A stretch of DNA of 64,000 nt from a virus (Duplodnaviria; Caudoviricetes). The DNA is taken from positions 186,516-250,515 of IMG/VR virus record IMGVR_UViG_3300014697_000001, one strand, 5' to 3'. Of this stretch, positions 3,470-49,582 are shown piece by piece. Below the pieces are notes generated by a model, which saw only the letters and a list, made by a program, of their open reading frames with translations, did not search any database and had not been told where the DNA came from. Position 1 is the first letter of the stretch. Each line of letters opens with the position of its first letter. A program made the position numbers and the translations under genes.

Positions 3470-5146
3470 ATGAGCACAATTTCTGACATTCCTCAGGTCG
3501 GTATTGTTGACCTTGACCGTGAGTGGAGGATCTGGAACATCACCCAGATCTTCACTGGTCTGCCGGGCACTGGTCTACACTGTCCGAACGTCGATGACCT
3601 GATCCTGGACATGACGTCGGGTTACTACCGCGTCACCACCATCGACATAACCACCGGTCGTAGCACCTACATCCCGTGGGAGTTGCCCCCGGTCACCCAG
3701 AACAACGTGGTCATCGATCAGTTGCTTGGTGTGGGTACTGGTCAACAAAGTGAGACATGGCGGGTCTACATTGACACACGTCAGATGCCCTTCTCGCTTC
3801 AAGTGGATGGTCGCCTGCACCTGTATCGGTCTGATGCGGACCATTACAAGGTCTTCCTGGGTACCGACCTCACCGACAACGGTGTAGTCGTCAGCGCCAA
3901 TTACAATGCCTCCGGTGAATTCCTTGGAGAGAACATTCCACTGGAGCATGTCGGGACTGACAATATCAATAACTGGGCGATCTGGGCGCCAGCTGCCGGT
4001 AACACCAACCGCCGTCTCAATGACGGGGAAGTGGTGACCGTGGTGATGTATAATGCCACGGGACACAAGCTTAGCCATTCGTCGATGCTGGTGCAGAACA
4101 CCAGCCTGGTGCGTCGCTCTGCTGCTGGCATGAAACGCATCCGTTCCATCGGCCTCAAGAGCCCGTATCTGTCCGATGCAGACCCAACCCAACTCGTGGT
4201 ACCGATTAACGTCGATCTGCGCACTGTGGGCGTTACAGGGGTTGTACGGTACAACTCCGGTGAAGAGATGGAAGTCCCCATCACGCTGGACGGCTCCGGT
4301 AAGATGAGTCTGCACGGTCTGCGGTGGTTCACTCCGACGATTCAGTCTCACCCGCACAAAATGACCCTGAGCTACCGGATGAGTGAAGATGAATACTCGT
4401 TGGAACACGGGATCACCGAGAACGGTTATATCACTGAAGCCTTTACCATCAAGGCGATTGCGGCAGACAATGCTTACAGCCTTCGTCTGTACGTCTTCCC
4501 GACGTGGAATGGTGCAGCAGGTCGGTATGACTTGGACTTCTGGTTGTTTAACATCGACCGGGACGTTTACTACCGCGTGCCGCGTAGCGTAATCGAGATC
4601 CCCGACAATGAAGTGGCCTTCGATGGCCAGGACTTTGTCTCCCGTCAACGGCTTAAGTTTGGTCTGAAGCTGTCCAACGTCGATCCGATCTTCACCGCTC
4701 ACCGTTTTGTACAAGCGGCTGAGATCTCGCTGACCAAGGCGGGTGATCAGTCAGGTGACCGTTGGCAGATCAAATGTGATCCGTCGCAGGAGAAGTTCTA
4801 CGGTCAAGGTATCGTGGCCAAGAACCGCTTCGTCAACACCAACCTGTCGTACCTGGATCTGAAGTCCGGTGCTACCAGCCTGGATGCGTGGCTGGACAAA
4901 GTGTACCGGCCTTTGAACCATTTATATGACAGCACAAGTGAAGTCGCTGCTCCAGAGCCGACACACTTTGTGATCCATACCAAGACACGCGAGTACACCT
5001 TCTATCGTGATCAGTGGAGCCAGGAGTTCCCGATTCTCAATGATGTTAAAGTTGGCGAGACCATTTACCTGCGGTGGGTGCGCGAAACTGCGCAAGGTCC
5101 ATTGCAGCTTGGGGTCACGGGCATGAGTGTGCAGCAAAGCAACTGA
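3470..5146 (+). CDS. Virion structural protein (phiKZ gp26-like)
   Basis: 558-aa beta-rich ORF immediately upstream of terminase; assigned by synteny. Confidence 0.7.
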   Translation: MSTISDIPQVGIVDLDREWRIWNITQIFTGLPGTGLHCPNVDDLILDMTSGYYRVTTIDITTGRSTYIPWELPPVTQNNVVIDQLLGVGTGQQSETWRVYIDTRQMPFSLQVDGRLHLYRSDADHYKVFLGTDLTDNGVVVSANYNASGEFLGENIPLEHVGTDNINNWAIWAPAAGNTNRRLNDGEVVTVVMYNATGHKLSHSSMLVQNTSLVRRSAAGMKRIRSIGLKSPYLSDADPTQLVVPINVDLRTVGVTGVVRYNSGEEMEVPITLDGSGKMSLHGLRWFTPTIQSHPHKMTLSYRMSEDEYSLEHGITENGYITEAFTIKAIAADNAYSLRLYVFPTWNGAAGRYDLDFWLFNIDRDVYYRVPRSVIEIPDNEVAFDGQDFVSRQRLKFGLKLSNVDPIFTAHRFVQAAEISLTKAGDQSGDRWQIKCDPSQEKFYGQGIVAKNRFVNTNLSYLDLKSGATSLDAWLDKVYRPLNHLYDSTSEVAAPEPTHFVIHTKTREYTFYRDQWSQEFPILNDVKVGETIYLRWVRETAQGPLQLGVTGMSVQQSN

Positions 5147-5218
5147 GTTAGGGTGCCTGGGTCTGTCGGGGGTAATTCCCCGATAGGCCTGGGTATGCCT
5201 TGGGATTGAGGTCCATCA

Positions 5219-7438
5219 ATGGAAACTATTCTTTTTGCTAACGACTGGCAGGAGAAGTACCCCACCGCAATTTGGGATACCAAGACGACCAATACCTCCT
5301 TTTTGGGTTTCTCGGCCCTGCTGAAACACATGGGGGTTAAGAACCACTTGTTCATGCTGGCATTGCTTCAGCCTGATCTTCAAGGGGTCGATCCCTTTGA
5401 TCCGTTACTCTCCGAGGAGATGAAACTCAAGATCAAGATCGAGTGTACGTTCAACCCTTGGTACTTCATTCGTGAAGTCATGCGGGTACCGCCGGCAGCA
5501 GGTGATACACCCATCAAGCTGGAAGCAAACCGGGGTAACATCTCGCTGTGGTGGAGTTTCCTGAACCACATCGACTACTTCCTTGTGCAGATCCGTCAGA
5601 CCGGTAAGTCCCTTAACTCGGACGGTATCTCGGTTTGGTATCAGGTCTTCGGCGCACGCAACTCGCGGTCCAACCTGTTCACCAAGGGTGACTTGTACAA
5701 GGAACACATTGCACGTCTGAAGAAACTCCGGGCATTGCTCCCTAAGTACCTGGTGAACATTGTCAAGAAGGACACGGATAACCAGAAAGAATTCACCAAC
5801 ATGTCCCAAGGTAACCGGATGGTGGTCTACATCCCTCAGAAGGACGAAGAAGCGGCCCGTAACCTAGGTCGTGGTCTGACTGTACCCCACAACCACACGG
5901 ACGAAATCGCGTTCCTGAAGAACGTCCACATCTCCTTGGGTGTTATGCTCGCAGGTGGTGGTGCGGCACGTGAAGAAGCGGCCCGCAACGGCCTGCCGTA
6001 CGGTAACATCTTTACTACCACAGCGGGCGAACTGGACACCCCGGAAGGGGCCTATGCCTACGACCTCATGACCGGTGGGGCCGAGTGGAACGATCACTTC
6101 TACGACTGCACCAATCGCACCGAACTGTACGAGGTGGTTCGCAAGCAGTGCCGTAACAAAGATGCCATCCTGATCAACGGTACCTTCAACCATCGTCAGC
6201 TGGGTAAGACCGATGCATGGCTCAGGACCAAAATTGCAGAATCCCGCCAGACCGGTGACGAGGTTCGGCGTGACTATCTGAACGAATGGACCTCAGGTAA
6301 CGCCAAGAACCCGCTGACCAAAGACTTGTTGCGCAAGATCATGGCCAGTGTGGTCAAGCCCGAGTTCCTTGAAATCGATAAGACGGACTATTATTCGATT
6401 CGCTGGTATGTGCCAGAACGAGAAGTTCGGGAAGGTTTGCCGGGACGTGAACTTGTCATGGGGATGGACACCTCCAACGCAGTCGGACGAGACAACATCA
6501 CAGGGGTGATATTGGACACCAGTACCCTTGAGACAGTCGGGGCATGGACAGTGAACGACTCCAACCTCACGGTGTTTGCCATGTGGCTGGTGAAGTTCTT
6601 TATCCGATTCAAGAAGTTGACCTTGGTGCCTGAGTCGAAATCCACCTGGATCGGTATTCTGGACACCTTGTTGCTGACTCTGCCGTCTCACGGTATTGAC
6701 CCTGCCAAGCGGATCTACTCGACGTTGGTTGATGCCAAGGACCAATCGCCTGAGGACCGTAAGCGCTACCACGAGTACATTGGGGATCGGGATAATTACC
6801 GGTCGTATCGGAAGCATTTCGGTTTCCCAACGAACCAAGGGTTGCGTGAGATCATCTATGGACCCGTCTTGCAGGAAGCGGCCAAGAAGACAGGTTCACT
6901 GGTACGGGATGCCAAGTTGCAAGGTGAGCTGGCACGTCTGGTGGAAAGGAATAACCGGATCGACCACCAGGCATCTGGACACGACGACCATGTCATCAGT
7001 TGGCTACTCTGTCACTGGTTCTTGACGTACGGTCAGAACCTTGAGCATTACGGCATTACCTTGAGCGAGGTCAAACGGCGCGTCTATGAGGCTGAACATA
7101 AGTTGTCCTGGGATGAACAGCGCCGCTACGATAAGCAGCAGCAGATTCGTGACGAGATCGCCCTGCTCAATGAACGGTTGTCCTCAGAGCGCAACGTCTA
7201 CGAACGAACCAAGGTGCAAAACCGGTTAGACCTCTTGATGGCCAAGATCTCCGATGAGTTTGACATGGAGAGTGCGGCATCCATTGACCAGATCAAAGAG
7301 AGTAACCGGGAGCGGCAGATGATCGATACCCGATCGTTTGGACCGGGTAGGGCCTTGGCCTTTGAGCGACCATTGAACCTTGACCTGCGCAGTCGAGGTC
7401 ATTATCAGGCGCCCAGAGGCCAGGTCATGATTCGGTGA
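5219..7438 (+). CDS. terL: Terminase large subunit
   Basis: Walker A QIRQTGKS, Walker B HTDE, coupling motif FTTT, and RNase H-fold nuclease motifs GMDTS and HDDHV. GAGG RBS. Confidence 0.92.
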   Translation: METILFANDWQEKYPTAIWDTKTTNTSFLGFSALLKHMGVKNHLFMLALLQPDLQGVDPFDPLLSEEMKLKIKIECTFNPWYFIREVMRVPPAAGDTPIKLEANRGNISLWWSFLNHIDYFLVQIRQTGKSLNSDGISVWYQVFGARNSRSNLFTKGDLYKEHIARLKKLRALLPKYLVNIVKKDTDNQKEFTNMSQGNRMVVYIPQKDEEAARNLGRGLTVPHNHTDEIAFLKNVHISLGVMLAGGGAAREEAARNGLPYGNIFTTTAGELDTPEGAYAYDLMTGGAEWNDHFYDCTNRTELYEVVRKQCRNKDAILINGTFNHRQLGKTDAWLRTKIAESRQTGDEVRRDYLNEWTSGNAKNPLTKDLLRKIMASVVKPEFLEIDKTDYYSIRWYVPEREVREGLPGRELVMGMDTSNAVGRDNITGVILDTSTLETVGAWTVNDSNLTVFAMWLVKFFIRFKKLTLVPESKSTWIGILDTLLLTLPSHGIDPAKRIYSTLVDAKDQSPEDRKRYHEYIGDRDNYRSYRKHFGFPTNQGLREIIYGPVLQEAAKKTGSLVRDAKLQGELARLVERNNRIDHQASGHDDHVISWLLCHWFLTYGQNLEHYGITLSEVKRRVYEAEHKLSWDEQRRYDKQQQIRDEIALLNERLSSERNVYERTKVQNRLDLLMAKISDEFDMESAASIDQIKESNRERQMIDTRSFGPGRALAFERPLNLDLRSRGHYQAPRGQVMIR

Positions 7439-14332: not shown

Positions 14333-15316
14333 ATGTCCCAAGGTCTTTCTACTCGTCCTGTCGGCCAAGTGCGTATCTATGCGTGTGGCGGTGGCGGCAT
14401 CAACATCGGTCGTGACTACCTGACCCCCGGTCATTCGGCAGACATTGCTGACTTCCAAGTGGCTTTCGTCGACACCTCCGACTCCAACCTCACCGACGGC
14501 CTGGAGAACAACACCTGGCTGTTCAAGGACCTCGACGGTTCCGGTAAGATCCGCAACAGCAACGACAAAGTAATTGCCAAGGCAGTGCCTGACATCCTGC
14601 GTAAGTTCGCTCCGGCTGACATGAACATCGTGATCTTCACGGCGTCGGGTGGTACGGGTTCGGTCGCCGGCCCGCTGATCCTCAAGCAGCTGCTGGAAGA
14701 CGGTCACCAGGCCGTCGGTATCGTCACCGGTTCTCACGAGTCCATCAAGACTGCCGAGAACACCATCGGTACCATCAAGTCGCTCGATGCCATCGGTCGC
14801 ATGACCAACAAGCCGGTGGTTATCCACTTCGGCATGAACCGTCCGAATGTGCCACGCTCCTCGATCGACCGTGAAGCCCACCTGATGATCAACGCCCTGG
14901 CAATCCTGTGCAGCCGCCGTAACCACGGCCTGGACACTGCCGACATCGCCAGCTTCCTGCAGTTCAACAAGTCGTCCGATATCCCGGCGTGCCTGGCTCG
15001 TATCCACCTGTTCGATGACATCGATCAGTTCGAGAAAGTCCTGACCGACCCGATCTCGGCTGCTTACCTCAAGCGCGAGCAGGATGATCCTCAGCCGAAT
15101 GTCTTCGTGCCTTACAGCTGCGATGGCTTCATGCCGTCGTTTGCTCAAACGTCGAAGAGCCTGTTCTTCGGTATCGAAAACCACTCCTTCGGTGCCCTGG
15201 CGCAGGAACTCGAAGGCCTGAAGAAGGAGATGGAGATGCAGCGTAAAACCCGCTCTCAAGCTGTCTCGTTCTTCAGTGACAGCGATGACGTGTCCACTAC
15301 CGGACTCGTGCTCTAA
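14333..15316 (+). CDS. phuZ: PhuZ tubulin/FtsZ-family spindle protein
   Basis: CGGGGINIG, VDTS, GSGK and tubulin signature SGGTGS, T7 loop LDTAD, acidic C-terminal tail. GAGGA RBS. Confidence 0.93.
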   Translation: MSQGLSTRPVGQVRIYACGGGGINIGRDYLTPGHSADIADFQVAFVDTSDSNLTDGLENNTWLFKDLDGSGKIRNSNDKVIAKAVPDILRKFAPADMNIVIFTASGGTGSVAGPLILKQLLEDGHQAVGIVTGSHESIKTAENTIGTIKSLDAIGRMTNKPVVIHFGMNRPNVPRSSIDREAHLMINALAILCSRRNHGLDTADIASFLQFNKSSDIPACLARIHLFDDIDQFEKVLTDPISAAYLKREQDDPQPNVFVPYSCDGFMPSFAQTSKSLFFGIENHSFGALAQELEGLKKEMEMQRKTRSQAVSFFSDSDDVSTTGLVL

Positions 15317-15384
15317 GCAATACACGACAGCGGGAGCAATCCCGCTGTCCTTATGCCGCCATCCCACATCTACGGAGACTCACC

Positions 15385-16087
15385 CATGTCCAAGCAAGAT
15401 TCCAACATTATCCTCGGCGTTGACGGTAAGCCGATGTACGAACTCGTCACCAAACCTCATCAGGAGCAGGCGTTCATTCATAAGCCCGTCTTCGGTAAGA
15501 TCAACTTGCTGCGTGTAGGTTTCCTGTCGCCGGTGCCGCCGCGTCATCTGAACAATGAGGCCTACATCCACGATTCCCGTCCGATTGCATGGCCACTGTA
15601 CCATCCTTACTGGATCGTCCGCATGTCTGACGATGCCAACATGCTGATGGCGTATGTCGAAGAAATCGAGCATGTCAAGCTGTACTGGCCGGAAGCAACC
15701 GAGGTGACCGTCTTCGAGGAGAACGTCACCCACTACTGCTTCAATAGTAACTTCCCTGAACCTATCTGGCTCAAGGACGTGCAAGACCCCAGTTTCCGGG
15801 TCGCACCACCCAAGACTGGCGCGTTCAAGATTACTGAACCTGAATCCGACCTGTCGATCATCGGCTTTAGCGACGACACCGATTACGATATTCAGCTCAA
15901 CTGCCACCAACTGGAATACGGTGTACATGAGCACGAGGCGTTCCAGCGCGAATACACCGACTGGACAGGACTCGAAGTCAACGTCTATGCGACCGAGACT
16001 CTGGAGGAAGCTGAAGCATATGCCCGTAAGCTTCTGAAGTTCGAGAATGCCGAAGACGGTAGCCTGCCTACCACCCTCCCACTCTGA
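15385..16087 (+). CDS. Fusion of a Trp/Pro-rich phage domain and an inactivated GIY-YIG-like domain
   Basis: N-part DSRPIAWPLYHPYW...YWPEA...FPEPIW. The C-part aligns by eye to the GIY-YIG domain at 48941 but lacks its catalytic residues. Confidence 0.7.
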
Positions 16088-16110
16088 CTGATAATGGATG
16101 GAGTTAAGTA

Positions 16111-16746
16111 ATGGATACCACCACCAGCAACCGCCCCACCTATGCTCAGAATGTCGAGCTGTATCGCCACCAGCTGTGGCTGAATGTATTGCGCCAATGC
16201 AGTCAATACCCTCACTCCAGTCGCCCTTCCCGTGAACGCTTCAACGCAAAGCTCATGAAGTACGCTAAAGGGGCCGGTAAGAATTACATGGACTTGTTCA
16301 ATTCCAGTAATGAGAAGGATCAGGACATTCCGGTTGGCTGGGCAGGCAAGAAACGCAAACAGATGATCCGCGAACAGGGACATTTCAATCTGGGTCGCAA
16401 AGCACCTCGTGTAAAACGTACGGTGGTAAAAGGCAACATCGCTCAACTGTCACTGGGTAACCGCTTGTCCATGTTCAAGTACATCCCAATTGAGCCCCTT
16501 GAACCGTGGACAGTCGATGACCTTCATCAGATCATCGACTGCCGCAATGGGAAAAGGGGTTGCCTGCATTTCATCGACAGCGGTATGAACACGATCCGTA
16601 CGATCGAGTACATCCGTGACCAGACCCTTGACGAATCTGAGGTCATCGCGCTGTGGTCCAGCATCTCGATCCCACGTACTCGTCCTGGTTCAGAAGGTGA
16701 GGTCCGACCGCTATTTCGTCGTCCTCATTTTCGCCAGCAGCAGTAA
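16111..16746 (+). CDS. Basic hypothetical protein
   Basis: 211 aa, Arg/Lys-rich, GGAG RBS. Confidence 0.75.
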   Translation: MDTTTSNRPTYAQNVELYRHQLWLNVLRQCSQYPHSSRPSRERFNAKLMKYAKGAGKNYMDLFNSSNEKDQDIPVGWAGKKRKQMIREQGHFNLGRKAPRVKRTVVKGNIAQLSLGNRLSMFKYIPIEPLEPWTVDDLHQIIDCRNGKRGCLHFIDSGMNTIRTIEYIRDQTLDESEVIALWSSISIPRTRPGSEGEVRPLFRRPHFRQQQ

Positions 16747-16781
16747 CAGACCCCCATACCACCCTTTCAAGGACTTTGTCG

Positions 16782-48940: not shown

Positions 48941-49582
48941 ATGAGAGTAAAACATGATCCAGTAATTGCAGCCTATAAAATCACAGATACTGAGACCGGT
49001 ACGTTTTATGTCGGAAGCACCACTAATCTTTCCAGGCGACTTGGGGAGCATAGGTTCCGTTTGCTGTCAGGGAAACACCCTAACATTAACCTTCAACAAG
49101 GTTTCACTTGTTGGGATAATATCGAAATAGAATACACTGCCGTGCCGACGGAAGAACTGTCAAAGAAACTTGAACAGAGTCTCTTGGATTTCCACAGAGG
49201 TGATCCAAATTGCGCTAACCTCGGTACTGGCGCAATAACCCCATGGTCTAACGGCATGCCCGATGAAAGTCGCGAGAAATGCCGGCTAGCCAATTTGGGC
49301 AGAACACGTAGTCCTGAGACGATCCAGCGAATACGTGAAGCTGCTCAGCAACGCCCGCCCGTATCAGAAGAAACTCGACGTAAATTATCGATGATCGGCA
49401 AAGGCAGACCTCATAGTGACGAACACAAACAACAAATAGCCGCTTCTCGCCGGAAACAAATTATCATTGACGGCGTTAAATACGACGGCATCGAAGTTGC
49501 TGCTAAAAGTCTTGGCCTATCCAGACCGACTGTCAGAAAAAGGTTACAGTCTCCTGACTGCACCACTTGGAATTTTACATGA
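48941..49582 (+). mobile_element. Free-standing GIY-YIG homing endonuclease with NUMOD3/NUMOD1 DNA-binding modules
   Basis: AAYKIT...FYVGST...RRLGEH...E...N catalytic domain; SPET/SEETRRKLS/HSDEHK repeats; C-terminal HTH. Own promoter and terminator; lower GC than its surroundings. Confidence 0.88.

Follow-up and report, generated by a model that had tools for sequence, protein, structure and literature searches.

The window analysed here is the terminal 64 kb of a virus record 250,515 bp long (IMG/VR IMGVR_UViG_3300014697_000001), and the positions given below are those of the window. On its plus strand, an open reading frame spans 15353-16087 when the longest start is used. All 24 homologues identified in databases (53-97% identity) are proteins of 230-240 aa, typically ~233 aa, whose alignment begins at the methionine encoded at 15386, and a GGAG sequence is situated 8 nt 5' of this ATG. 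These features place the gene at 15386..16087 (stop codon included), with a product of 233 aa, termed here the fusion protein. Only one relative is named: PA10_00130 of Pseudomonas phage pPa_SNUABM_DT01, a hypothetical protein with 59% identity whose gene is not discussed in the paper on that phage. Scans of the whole 233-aa protein and of each half against Pfam and PHROG gave no usable match.

The protein begins with an extension (residues 1-37; 15386..15496, plus strand) that carries an invariant D-G-K-P-x-Y motif (D13, G14, K15, P16 and Y18). This is followed by a Trp/Pro-rich domain (residues 38-130; 15497..15775, plus strand), hereafter the N-domain, which is part of a large family of small phage proteins that has no name. 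The second domain, hereafter the C-domain (residues 143-222; 15812..16051, plus strand), has the element order beta-beta-alpha-alpha-beta-alpha and was identified as a degenerate, acidic GIY-YIG domain on the basis of homology, fold, active-site residues, dN/dS and pI. A tail (residues 223-233; 16052..16084, plus strand) with a semi-conserved G-x-L-P-T motif, of which T229 is 94% conserved in the family, closes the protein. Both motifs fall in regions of the AlphaFold2 model with low confidence (pLDDT 37-63 for the extension and 41-53 for the tail), and from their sequence conservation they look like candidate short docking peptides.

Upstream of the fusion gene lies phuZ, encoding the phage tubulin (14276..15316, plus strand; PHROG 4733, E 4e-81; Pfam Tubulin and TubZ_C_2), with a gap of 69 nt between the two genes. 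This gap contains a hairpin with a perfect 10-bp stem and a GCAA loop (15326..15349, plus strand) that starts 10 nt past the phuZ stop codon. Its predicted RNA fold has an energy of -24.2 kcal/mol (z = -4.0), with none of 200 shuffled sequences being equally stable, and there is no U-run behind it. The hairpin could terminate transcription by the phage polymerase, be a site of processing or act as a stabiliser. A scan of the region for sigma-70 promoters and terminators gave matches at shuffle level only; these phages use their own polymerases. No close DNA relatives of the region were detected with megablast against the phage collection.

The first-pass annotation of this DNA had proposed that 15818-16036 aligns without gaps to an endonuclease encoded further downstream in the window, and this was reproduced. 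The gene in question (48941..49582, plus strand) encodes an intact I-TevI-like GIY-YIG homing endonuclease (Pfam GIY-YIG, NUMOD3 and I-TevI_DNA-bd; PHROG 314) and was the only match to PF01541 in a genome-wide scan. BLASTP between the fusion protein and this endonuclease yielded a gapless alignment with 24% identity over 82 aa (E 3e-6, the value for a single comparison). A profile HMM of the C-domain, constructed from 25 family members and searched with all filters off against the 2107 ORFs obtained from the 250-kb genome in six frames, identified besides the C-domain itself only this endonuclease (E 7.9e-11, 39 bits), the next match being at E 0.17. The match is thus far beyond chance, and its higher score with the profile than in the pairwise comparison is what true homology would produce. 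Two other GIY-YIG endonucleases in related loci were likewise matched by this HMM, together with P0031 (59 bits), an I-TevI-like endonuclease assigned to the GIY-YIG family by Pfam. When the single C-domain was searched with phmmer against 1.84 billion representatives, P0031 was again recovered (E 1.5e-4), with the remaining genuine matches being members of the same fusion family. Two further strong phmmer matches (P0025 and P0028) were discarded, these being beta-helix/fibronectin repeat proteins with many short matched stretches.

Comparison of the family profile with a profile of the endonuclease using hhalign gave a probability of 98.7% (E 3.8e-16, 85 columns), both profiles being small and that of the endonuclease being built from four sequences. 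A search of PDB sequences with the full-family profile ranked the I-TevI catalytic domain first, at a borderline E of 0.02. The Pfam model PF01541 found no match at E up to 10, either in the whole protein or in the isolated C-domain, and this blindness of the model explains why the domain lacked an annotation.

Structure prediction gave a concordant result. The AlphaFold2 model of the fusion protein has a mean pLDDT of 81.5, rising to >90 over residues 140-220, and its pTM of 0.75 suggests a defined arrangement of the two domains. The C-domain is modelled as strands at residues 145-151, 156-162 and 197-202, with helices at 165-178, 184-189 and 206-221. Foldseek with this model placed I-TevI chains at ranks 1-3 (probability 1.0, TM 0.71), and a Foldseek-independent search (VIA) aligned 80 of 92 residues to the catalytic domain of I-TevI (1ln0_A; Z 9.7, rmsd 2.5). 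In the latter ranking, I-TevI was followed by UvrC, PD-T4-3, a plant Grx N-domain, T4 EndoII, Eco29kI and HIGLE, so that all of the top seven are GIY-YIG folds. Nearly all matches in a viral structure library were entries named 'intron-associated endonuclease', that is, GIY-YIG homing endonucleases. On six independent lines of evidence, drawn from sequence and from the AlphaFold2 structure, residues 143-222 are genuinely homologous to the GIY-YIG nuclease domain, as had been proposed from the letters of the window.

The residues required for catalysis were examined at I-TevI positions read off gapless alignments in 34 distinct family sequences. The tyrosine of the GIY motif (Y6) is Phe in 22, Tyr in five, Trp in four and Val in three, the protein of the window having Phe. 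At the tyrosine of the YIG motif (Y17), the proposed general base, Ile (25), Leu (8) or Val (1) was found; R27 is replaced by Ala (25), Asp (8) or Gln (1), and H31 by Asn in 28 and Gln in two, with His in the remaining four. The metal-binding glutamate (E75) has given way to Ala (20), Tyr (11) or Gly (3). No Arg or Lys at position 27 and no Asp or Glu at position 75 occurred in any of the 34 sequences. The equivalent of H40 is retained in all 34 (H181 in the window), as is the Gly of the YIG motif in 31. The substitutions first read from the window, namely Y to F, Y to I, R to D, H to N and E to A, are therefore as described, with the addition that the His40 equivalent survives. With regard to Asn90, the structural alignment stops near I-TevI residue 86, and no conserved Asn is present in the tail.

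Cleavage by I-BmoI and I-TevI is lost when Y17, R27, E74/75 or N87/90 is changed to alanine, and even the substitution Y17F suffices to inactivate I-BmoI (PMC2853131). Given these mutants and the replacement of Tyr17, Arg27 and Glu75 in 34 of 34 sequences, the C-domain has no access to the canonical one-metal mechanism. The earlier description of the domain as catalytically dead thus holds for every family member as far as the canonical catalytic set is concerned, and from these residues nuclease activity has most likely been lost. The loss of the catalytic residues appears to be older than the divergence of the family.

The relationship to I-TevI-type homing endonucleases (PDB 1LN0/1MK0; PF01541) is one of shared fold, topology and demonstrable sequence homology, with the YIG glycine and the His40 equivalent kept, but Tyr17, Arg27 and Glu75 replaced in all members and Tyr6 in most. 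Further differences lie in the architecture, as the GIY-YIG domain is C-terminal in the fusion protein rather than N-terminal, and the NUMOD/I-TevI DNA-binding half is missing. The protein ends 11 residues past the C-domain, and no NUMOD or I-TevI_DNA-bd region was matched by Pfam after it. The C-domain is in addition acidic, where its active relatives are neutral or basic, and it is missed by the Pfam model.

The N-domain has relatives of its own, bearing out the proposal that the nuclease fold had been joined to a separate Trp/Pro-rich domain. In a tblastn search of the phage collection, it was found alone in phage PaBG (PaBG_00027, 98 aa), Klebsiella phage 05F01 (gene_258, 80 aa) and Ralstonia phage RsoM2USA (RsoM2USA_77, 76 aa), all annotated as hypothetical, while a 180-aa protein of a crAss-like phage has it at the N-terminus, ahead of a coiled-coil-like tail. 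A profile search identified at least 689 protein clusters, which carry neither a Pfam domain nor a name. Relatives are encoded at 364 IMG/VR loci and are mostly 79-90 aa in length, beginning right at the first strand. The family is abundant in ~150-kb phages of the human gut, where it takes the form of 176-180-aa proteins that include a coiled-coil tail, and its motifs W-P-x-x-H-P-Y-W and W-P-E-A recur at loci including L014, L015, L017, L018 and L020-L099. The analysis thereby points to a very widespread, unnamed phage protein family with carriers among hundreds of unrelated phages.

The stand-alone proteins are homologous to residues 38-130 of the fusion protein, begin at the MIRxRF strand and lack the extension of residues 1-37. 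The PaBG protein also matches in fold (TM 0.77, rmsd 2.2). Invariant positions of the N-domain are mainly Trp, Pro, Tyr and Phe, together with a single Asp and a single Arg, and the stand-alone proteins share them (D, R, P, W-P, P-Y-W, Y, W-P-x-A and P-x-W). Each consists of a single domain or, in crAss-like phages, also possesses the coiled-coil tail, and none bears a GIY-YIG module. The occurrence of the same N-domain head with different C-terminal additions across phages favours the dead nuclease fold being an appended accessory module.

The N-domain itself had no match in Pfam or PHROG, and a search of the ESM Atlas gave no usable match. A word-indexed search for short relatives with the sequence of the window alone returned no candidate, and succeeded only when an alignment of distant matches was used as the query. 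A separate model of the domain has a pLDDT of 83, and no fold family could be assigned to it, the matches in Foldseek/PDB and VIA-wide searches being generic ferredoxin/ACT/acylphosphatase-like (E >=0.2, Z <=4.7). Neighbours of the stand-alone genes encode NUDIX, dNTP diphosphohydrolase, C5 and N6/N4 methylases and dUTPase, as well as an adenylosuccinate-synthetase-like protein, RecA, DUF2400 and terminase. This weak association leans towards nucleotide or DNA metabolism and modification and is too unspecific to name a function.

The fusion was found only in one clade, that of the relatives of pPa_SNUABM_DT01 (contigs of 260-277 kb), and tblastn of the phage collection identified full-length homologues only in pPa_SNUABM_DT01. 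One member thus resides in a cultured Pseudomonas phage, making it accessible to experiment.

Homing genes were observed around phuZ in this clade. Locus L001 (IMGVR_UViG_3300018411_000019), 97% identical to the window, has a gene for a 255-aa GIY-YIG/I-TevI-type homing endonuclease (4188-4955) inserted at the 5' end of phuZ, the insertion region 4056-4995 corresponding to window positions 14380-14392. The first 38 codons of phuZ are doubled in L001, with the old copy at 4056-4169, and the intact phuZ (4888-5931) bears a diverged new N-terminus, which looks like the work of a homing gene that brought a replacement phuZ end along. Another GIY-YIG/I-TevI-type gene is situated upstream of the DUF7484 gene in L011. 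Live GIY-YIG homing genes thus insert and vanish around phuZ in close relatives. Since the C-domain is closest in sequence to I-TevI-like endonucleases found in this phage group, and such genes occur as live copies around phuZ, its descent from a selfish homing endonuclease is supported, in agreement with the origin first suggested for it. In the simplest history, a homing gene would have landed beside a gene for the N-domain in the phuZ region, with its catalytic domain being fused to it and later repurposed.

Selection on the C-domain was assessed using the Nei-Gojobori method on codon alignments of 14 copies (the window and 13 IMG/VR loci), restricted to pairs with dS <0.8. In these unsaturated pairs dN/dS ranged from 0.04 to 0.26, with values of 0.04 for the window and L001 and likewise for L004 and L005, 0.08 for L011 and L012, 0.09 for L012 and L013, 0.12 for L003 and L005, 0.16 for L008 and L010, and 0.22 for L002 and L003. 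The open frame was intact in 38 of 38 copies, down to 44% identity. Mean pairwise identity is 49% in the C-domain compared to 67% in the N-domain; the C-domain evolves faster than the N-domain, yet these substitution patterns are clearly non-neutral and indicate purifying selection. Neither of the two outcomes that the first-pass annotation had named as refuting it, a predicted structure without the GIY-YIG fold and neutral evolution of the domain, was therefore observed.

Ten columns are invariant in an alignment of 25 family sequences (alignment A1), and conservation of the C-domain peaks at residues 163-187, comprising helix 1, the following loop and the start of helix 2. In this segment Y167, Q170, L176, Y178 and H181 are invariant, with H174 (31 of 34), D164, D166, L171, G179, F186 and Q187 being nearly so. 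Helix 1 is the element that formerly bore Arg27 and His31, and its Y167, Q170, H174 and Y178 align with lysines K26, K29, K33 and K37 of I-TevI. Helical periodicity in the alignments would place Y167, H174 and Y178 on the face of the helix opposite the hydrophobic core, beside the old cleft. This face looks like a new interaction surface, which could be directed toward the N-domain, a partner or a ligand.

Several functions had been suggested for the repurposed fold at first reading (decoy, nuclease inhibitor or interaction module), and an interaction module is the most economical of these. The reading favoured here, regarded as reasonably probable rather than assured, is that the fusion protein, which a single clade of jumbo phages has retained, is a binding or scaffolding module without catalytic function. 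It would be a soluble, acidic, three-part protein of nucleus-forming phages, whose C-domain has as its ancestor the catalytic domain of a GIY-YIG homing endonuclease of the I-TevI type. In its descent the C-domain has shed the general-base tyrosine, the arginine, the metal-binding glutamate and the DNA-binding half, and turned strongly acidic. Given the lost residues, the lost DNA-binding half and the acidity, it most likely neither binds nor cuts DNA now. It may instead act as a binding or scaffold module for the N-domain, by analogy with the coiled-coil tail that follows the same N-domain in crAss-like phages.

Other homing-endonuclease folds have been domesticated or inactivated, as in the LAGLIDADG maturases and WhiA, and Odn of phage ICP1 is reportedly a domesticated yet active chimeric nuclease. 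The fusion protein resembles these in that a selfish nuclease module has been kept by its carrier for a new purpose. It differs in that the LAGLIDADG maturases, WhiA and Odn retain nucleic-acid binding (and Odn even cleavage), whereas the DNA-binding half of the fusion protein has been shed and its C-domain is acidic, making nucleic-acid binding unlikely. A homing endonuclease gene would normally be expected to spread into a genome, reach fixation, degenerate and be lost; the catalytic domain studied here has instead been kept for long, in copies down to 44% identity, without its chemistry or its DNA-binding half. The fusion protein would accordingly be a clean case of a part of a selfish nuclease exapted in a virus, with an inactive GIY-YIG domain as its product. 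No description of a non-catalytic GIY-YIG derivative in phages was found in a limited literature search, and a 2006 survey of the GIY-YIG superfamily mentions no inactive branch (PMC1564403). Until a partner or phenotype is found, the protein is a curiosity rather than a breakthrough.

A different function, considered unlikely while retaining some plausibility, is that of a DNA mimic or decoy, in which the acidified fold would fill the DNA-binding site of a host defence nuclease, of a host protein that binds DNA or of an endonuclease from a competitor phage, and so serve as an anti-restriction or anti-homing protein. The acidity on which this would depend, and on which the favoured reading also draws, had been noted at the outset and was corroborated. 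The C-domain of the window protein contains 20 D/E versus 6 K/R (pI 4.2; net charge about -14, counted over 93 residues), compared to 12 D/E versus 11 K/R (pI 6.4) for the catalytic domain of the endonuclease at 48941-49582. In 25 of 25 aligned members its pI is 4.2-4.7. Asp or Glu makes up at least 74% of the residues at nine positions, among them an S-D-D-x-D loop before helix 1, the equivalent of which approaches DNA in real GIY-YIG enzymes. The proteome of the phage is acidic overall (median pI ~5.7, 5th percentile ~4.5, from a crude ORF set), so that the C-domain lies at the extreme of the range and not off the scale, and acidity alone is weak evidence.

The decoy reading would also accord with the stand-alone N-domain proteins residing amid small accessory and DNA-metabolism or modification genes in unrelated phages, and with homing endonucleases being active at the same locus in close relatives. 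Ocr, Ugi and ArdA are small acidic phage inhibitor proteins or DNA mimics, and the fusion protein is like them in small size, strong negative charge and an early or accessory-type gene context. No homology or fold match to these or other known DNA mimics was found, however, and conservation in the fusion protein is not centred on carboxylates, being led by aromatic, His and Gln residues in place of a regular carboxylate array. Furthermore, I-TevI-type enzymes are reported to act as monomers (PMC3664794), making a dominant-negative mode of action unlikely.

It is improbable, though less so than the readings that follow, that the protein is still an enzyme, with the fold re-tooled around a new site (Y167, Q170, H174, Y178, H181, D164 and D166) for another hydrolytic or ligand-binding reaction. 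Residues 163-187 could in that case mark a new ligand, metal or catalytic site and not a protein interface, in keeping with their being better conserved than the rest of the domain and including four invariant polar or aromatic residues, the nearly invariant H174 and two nearly invariant aspartates. Unusual GIY-YIG active sites do exist, as exemplified by R.Hpy188I (PMC2630997). Against an enzyme stands the absence of both the arginine and the metal-binding glutamate from all 34 sequences. To our knowledge, the variant GIY-YIG sites known so far keep both of these residues. In addition, Y167, H174 and Y178 would sit on the side of helix 1 that is exposed to solvent, outside the cleft, if the alignments are a guide.

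Rather improbable also is an immunity or decoy device against the homing endonucleases of co-infecting nucleus-forming phages or a host nuclease, shielding the phuZ region, into which homing genes demonstrably insert. Such a module would bind and neutralise the incoming nuclease or its cofactor and, if real, would be the first case of a homing endonuclease turned into an anti-homing protein.

Less probable again is a factor linked to PhuZ, in which the protein would work with the tubulin spindle and its position would reflect a shared function. The position beside phuZ that had been remarked on is true synteny, as the order of DUF7484 (minus strand), phuZ and fusion gene is kept in 13 of 13 IMG/VR loci and in pPa_SNUABM_DT01, with the short gap in the window adding to the impression of a link. 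However, an extra ORF of 158-169 aa, absent from the window and L001, intervenes between phuZ and the fusion gene in pPa_SNUABM_DT01 and most other relatives (for example at L016:4515-4991, which is PA10_00129 of pPa_SNUABM_DT01, and at L007:5477-5986). Direct adjacency in the window is thus a local state and not a rule, and the synteny need not reflect a functional link to PhuZ. The stable hairpin between the two genes also speaks against such a link, as does the lack of full-length homologues in other PhuZ-encoding phages such as phiKZ and Noxifer (tblastn of the phage collection), and genes in these genomes generally keep their order over long stretches.

The least probable reading, that of a functionless decaying remnant of a homing gene or a chance resemblance, has the expected degeneration of fixed homing genes and the faster evolution of the C-domain in its favour and is refuted by the selection and homology statistics: the low dN/dS, intact frames and ten invariant columns argue against a remnant, and the HMM, Z and hhalign scores exclude chance.

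Beyond the fusion gene, homology between the window and L001 was found to end exactly at its stop codon (16087) and to restart at 16764. The intervening sequence is a variable cassette of 676 bp (16088..16763, plus strand) that carries ORF 16111-16746, encoding a basic protein of 211 aa for which no Pfam or PHROG family was matched. This ORF is found in some relatives and missing from others, and in L001 the site of the 676-bp cassette is occupied by 308 unrelated bases.
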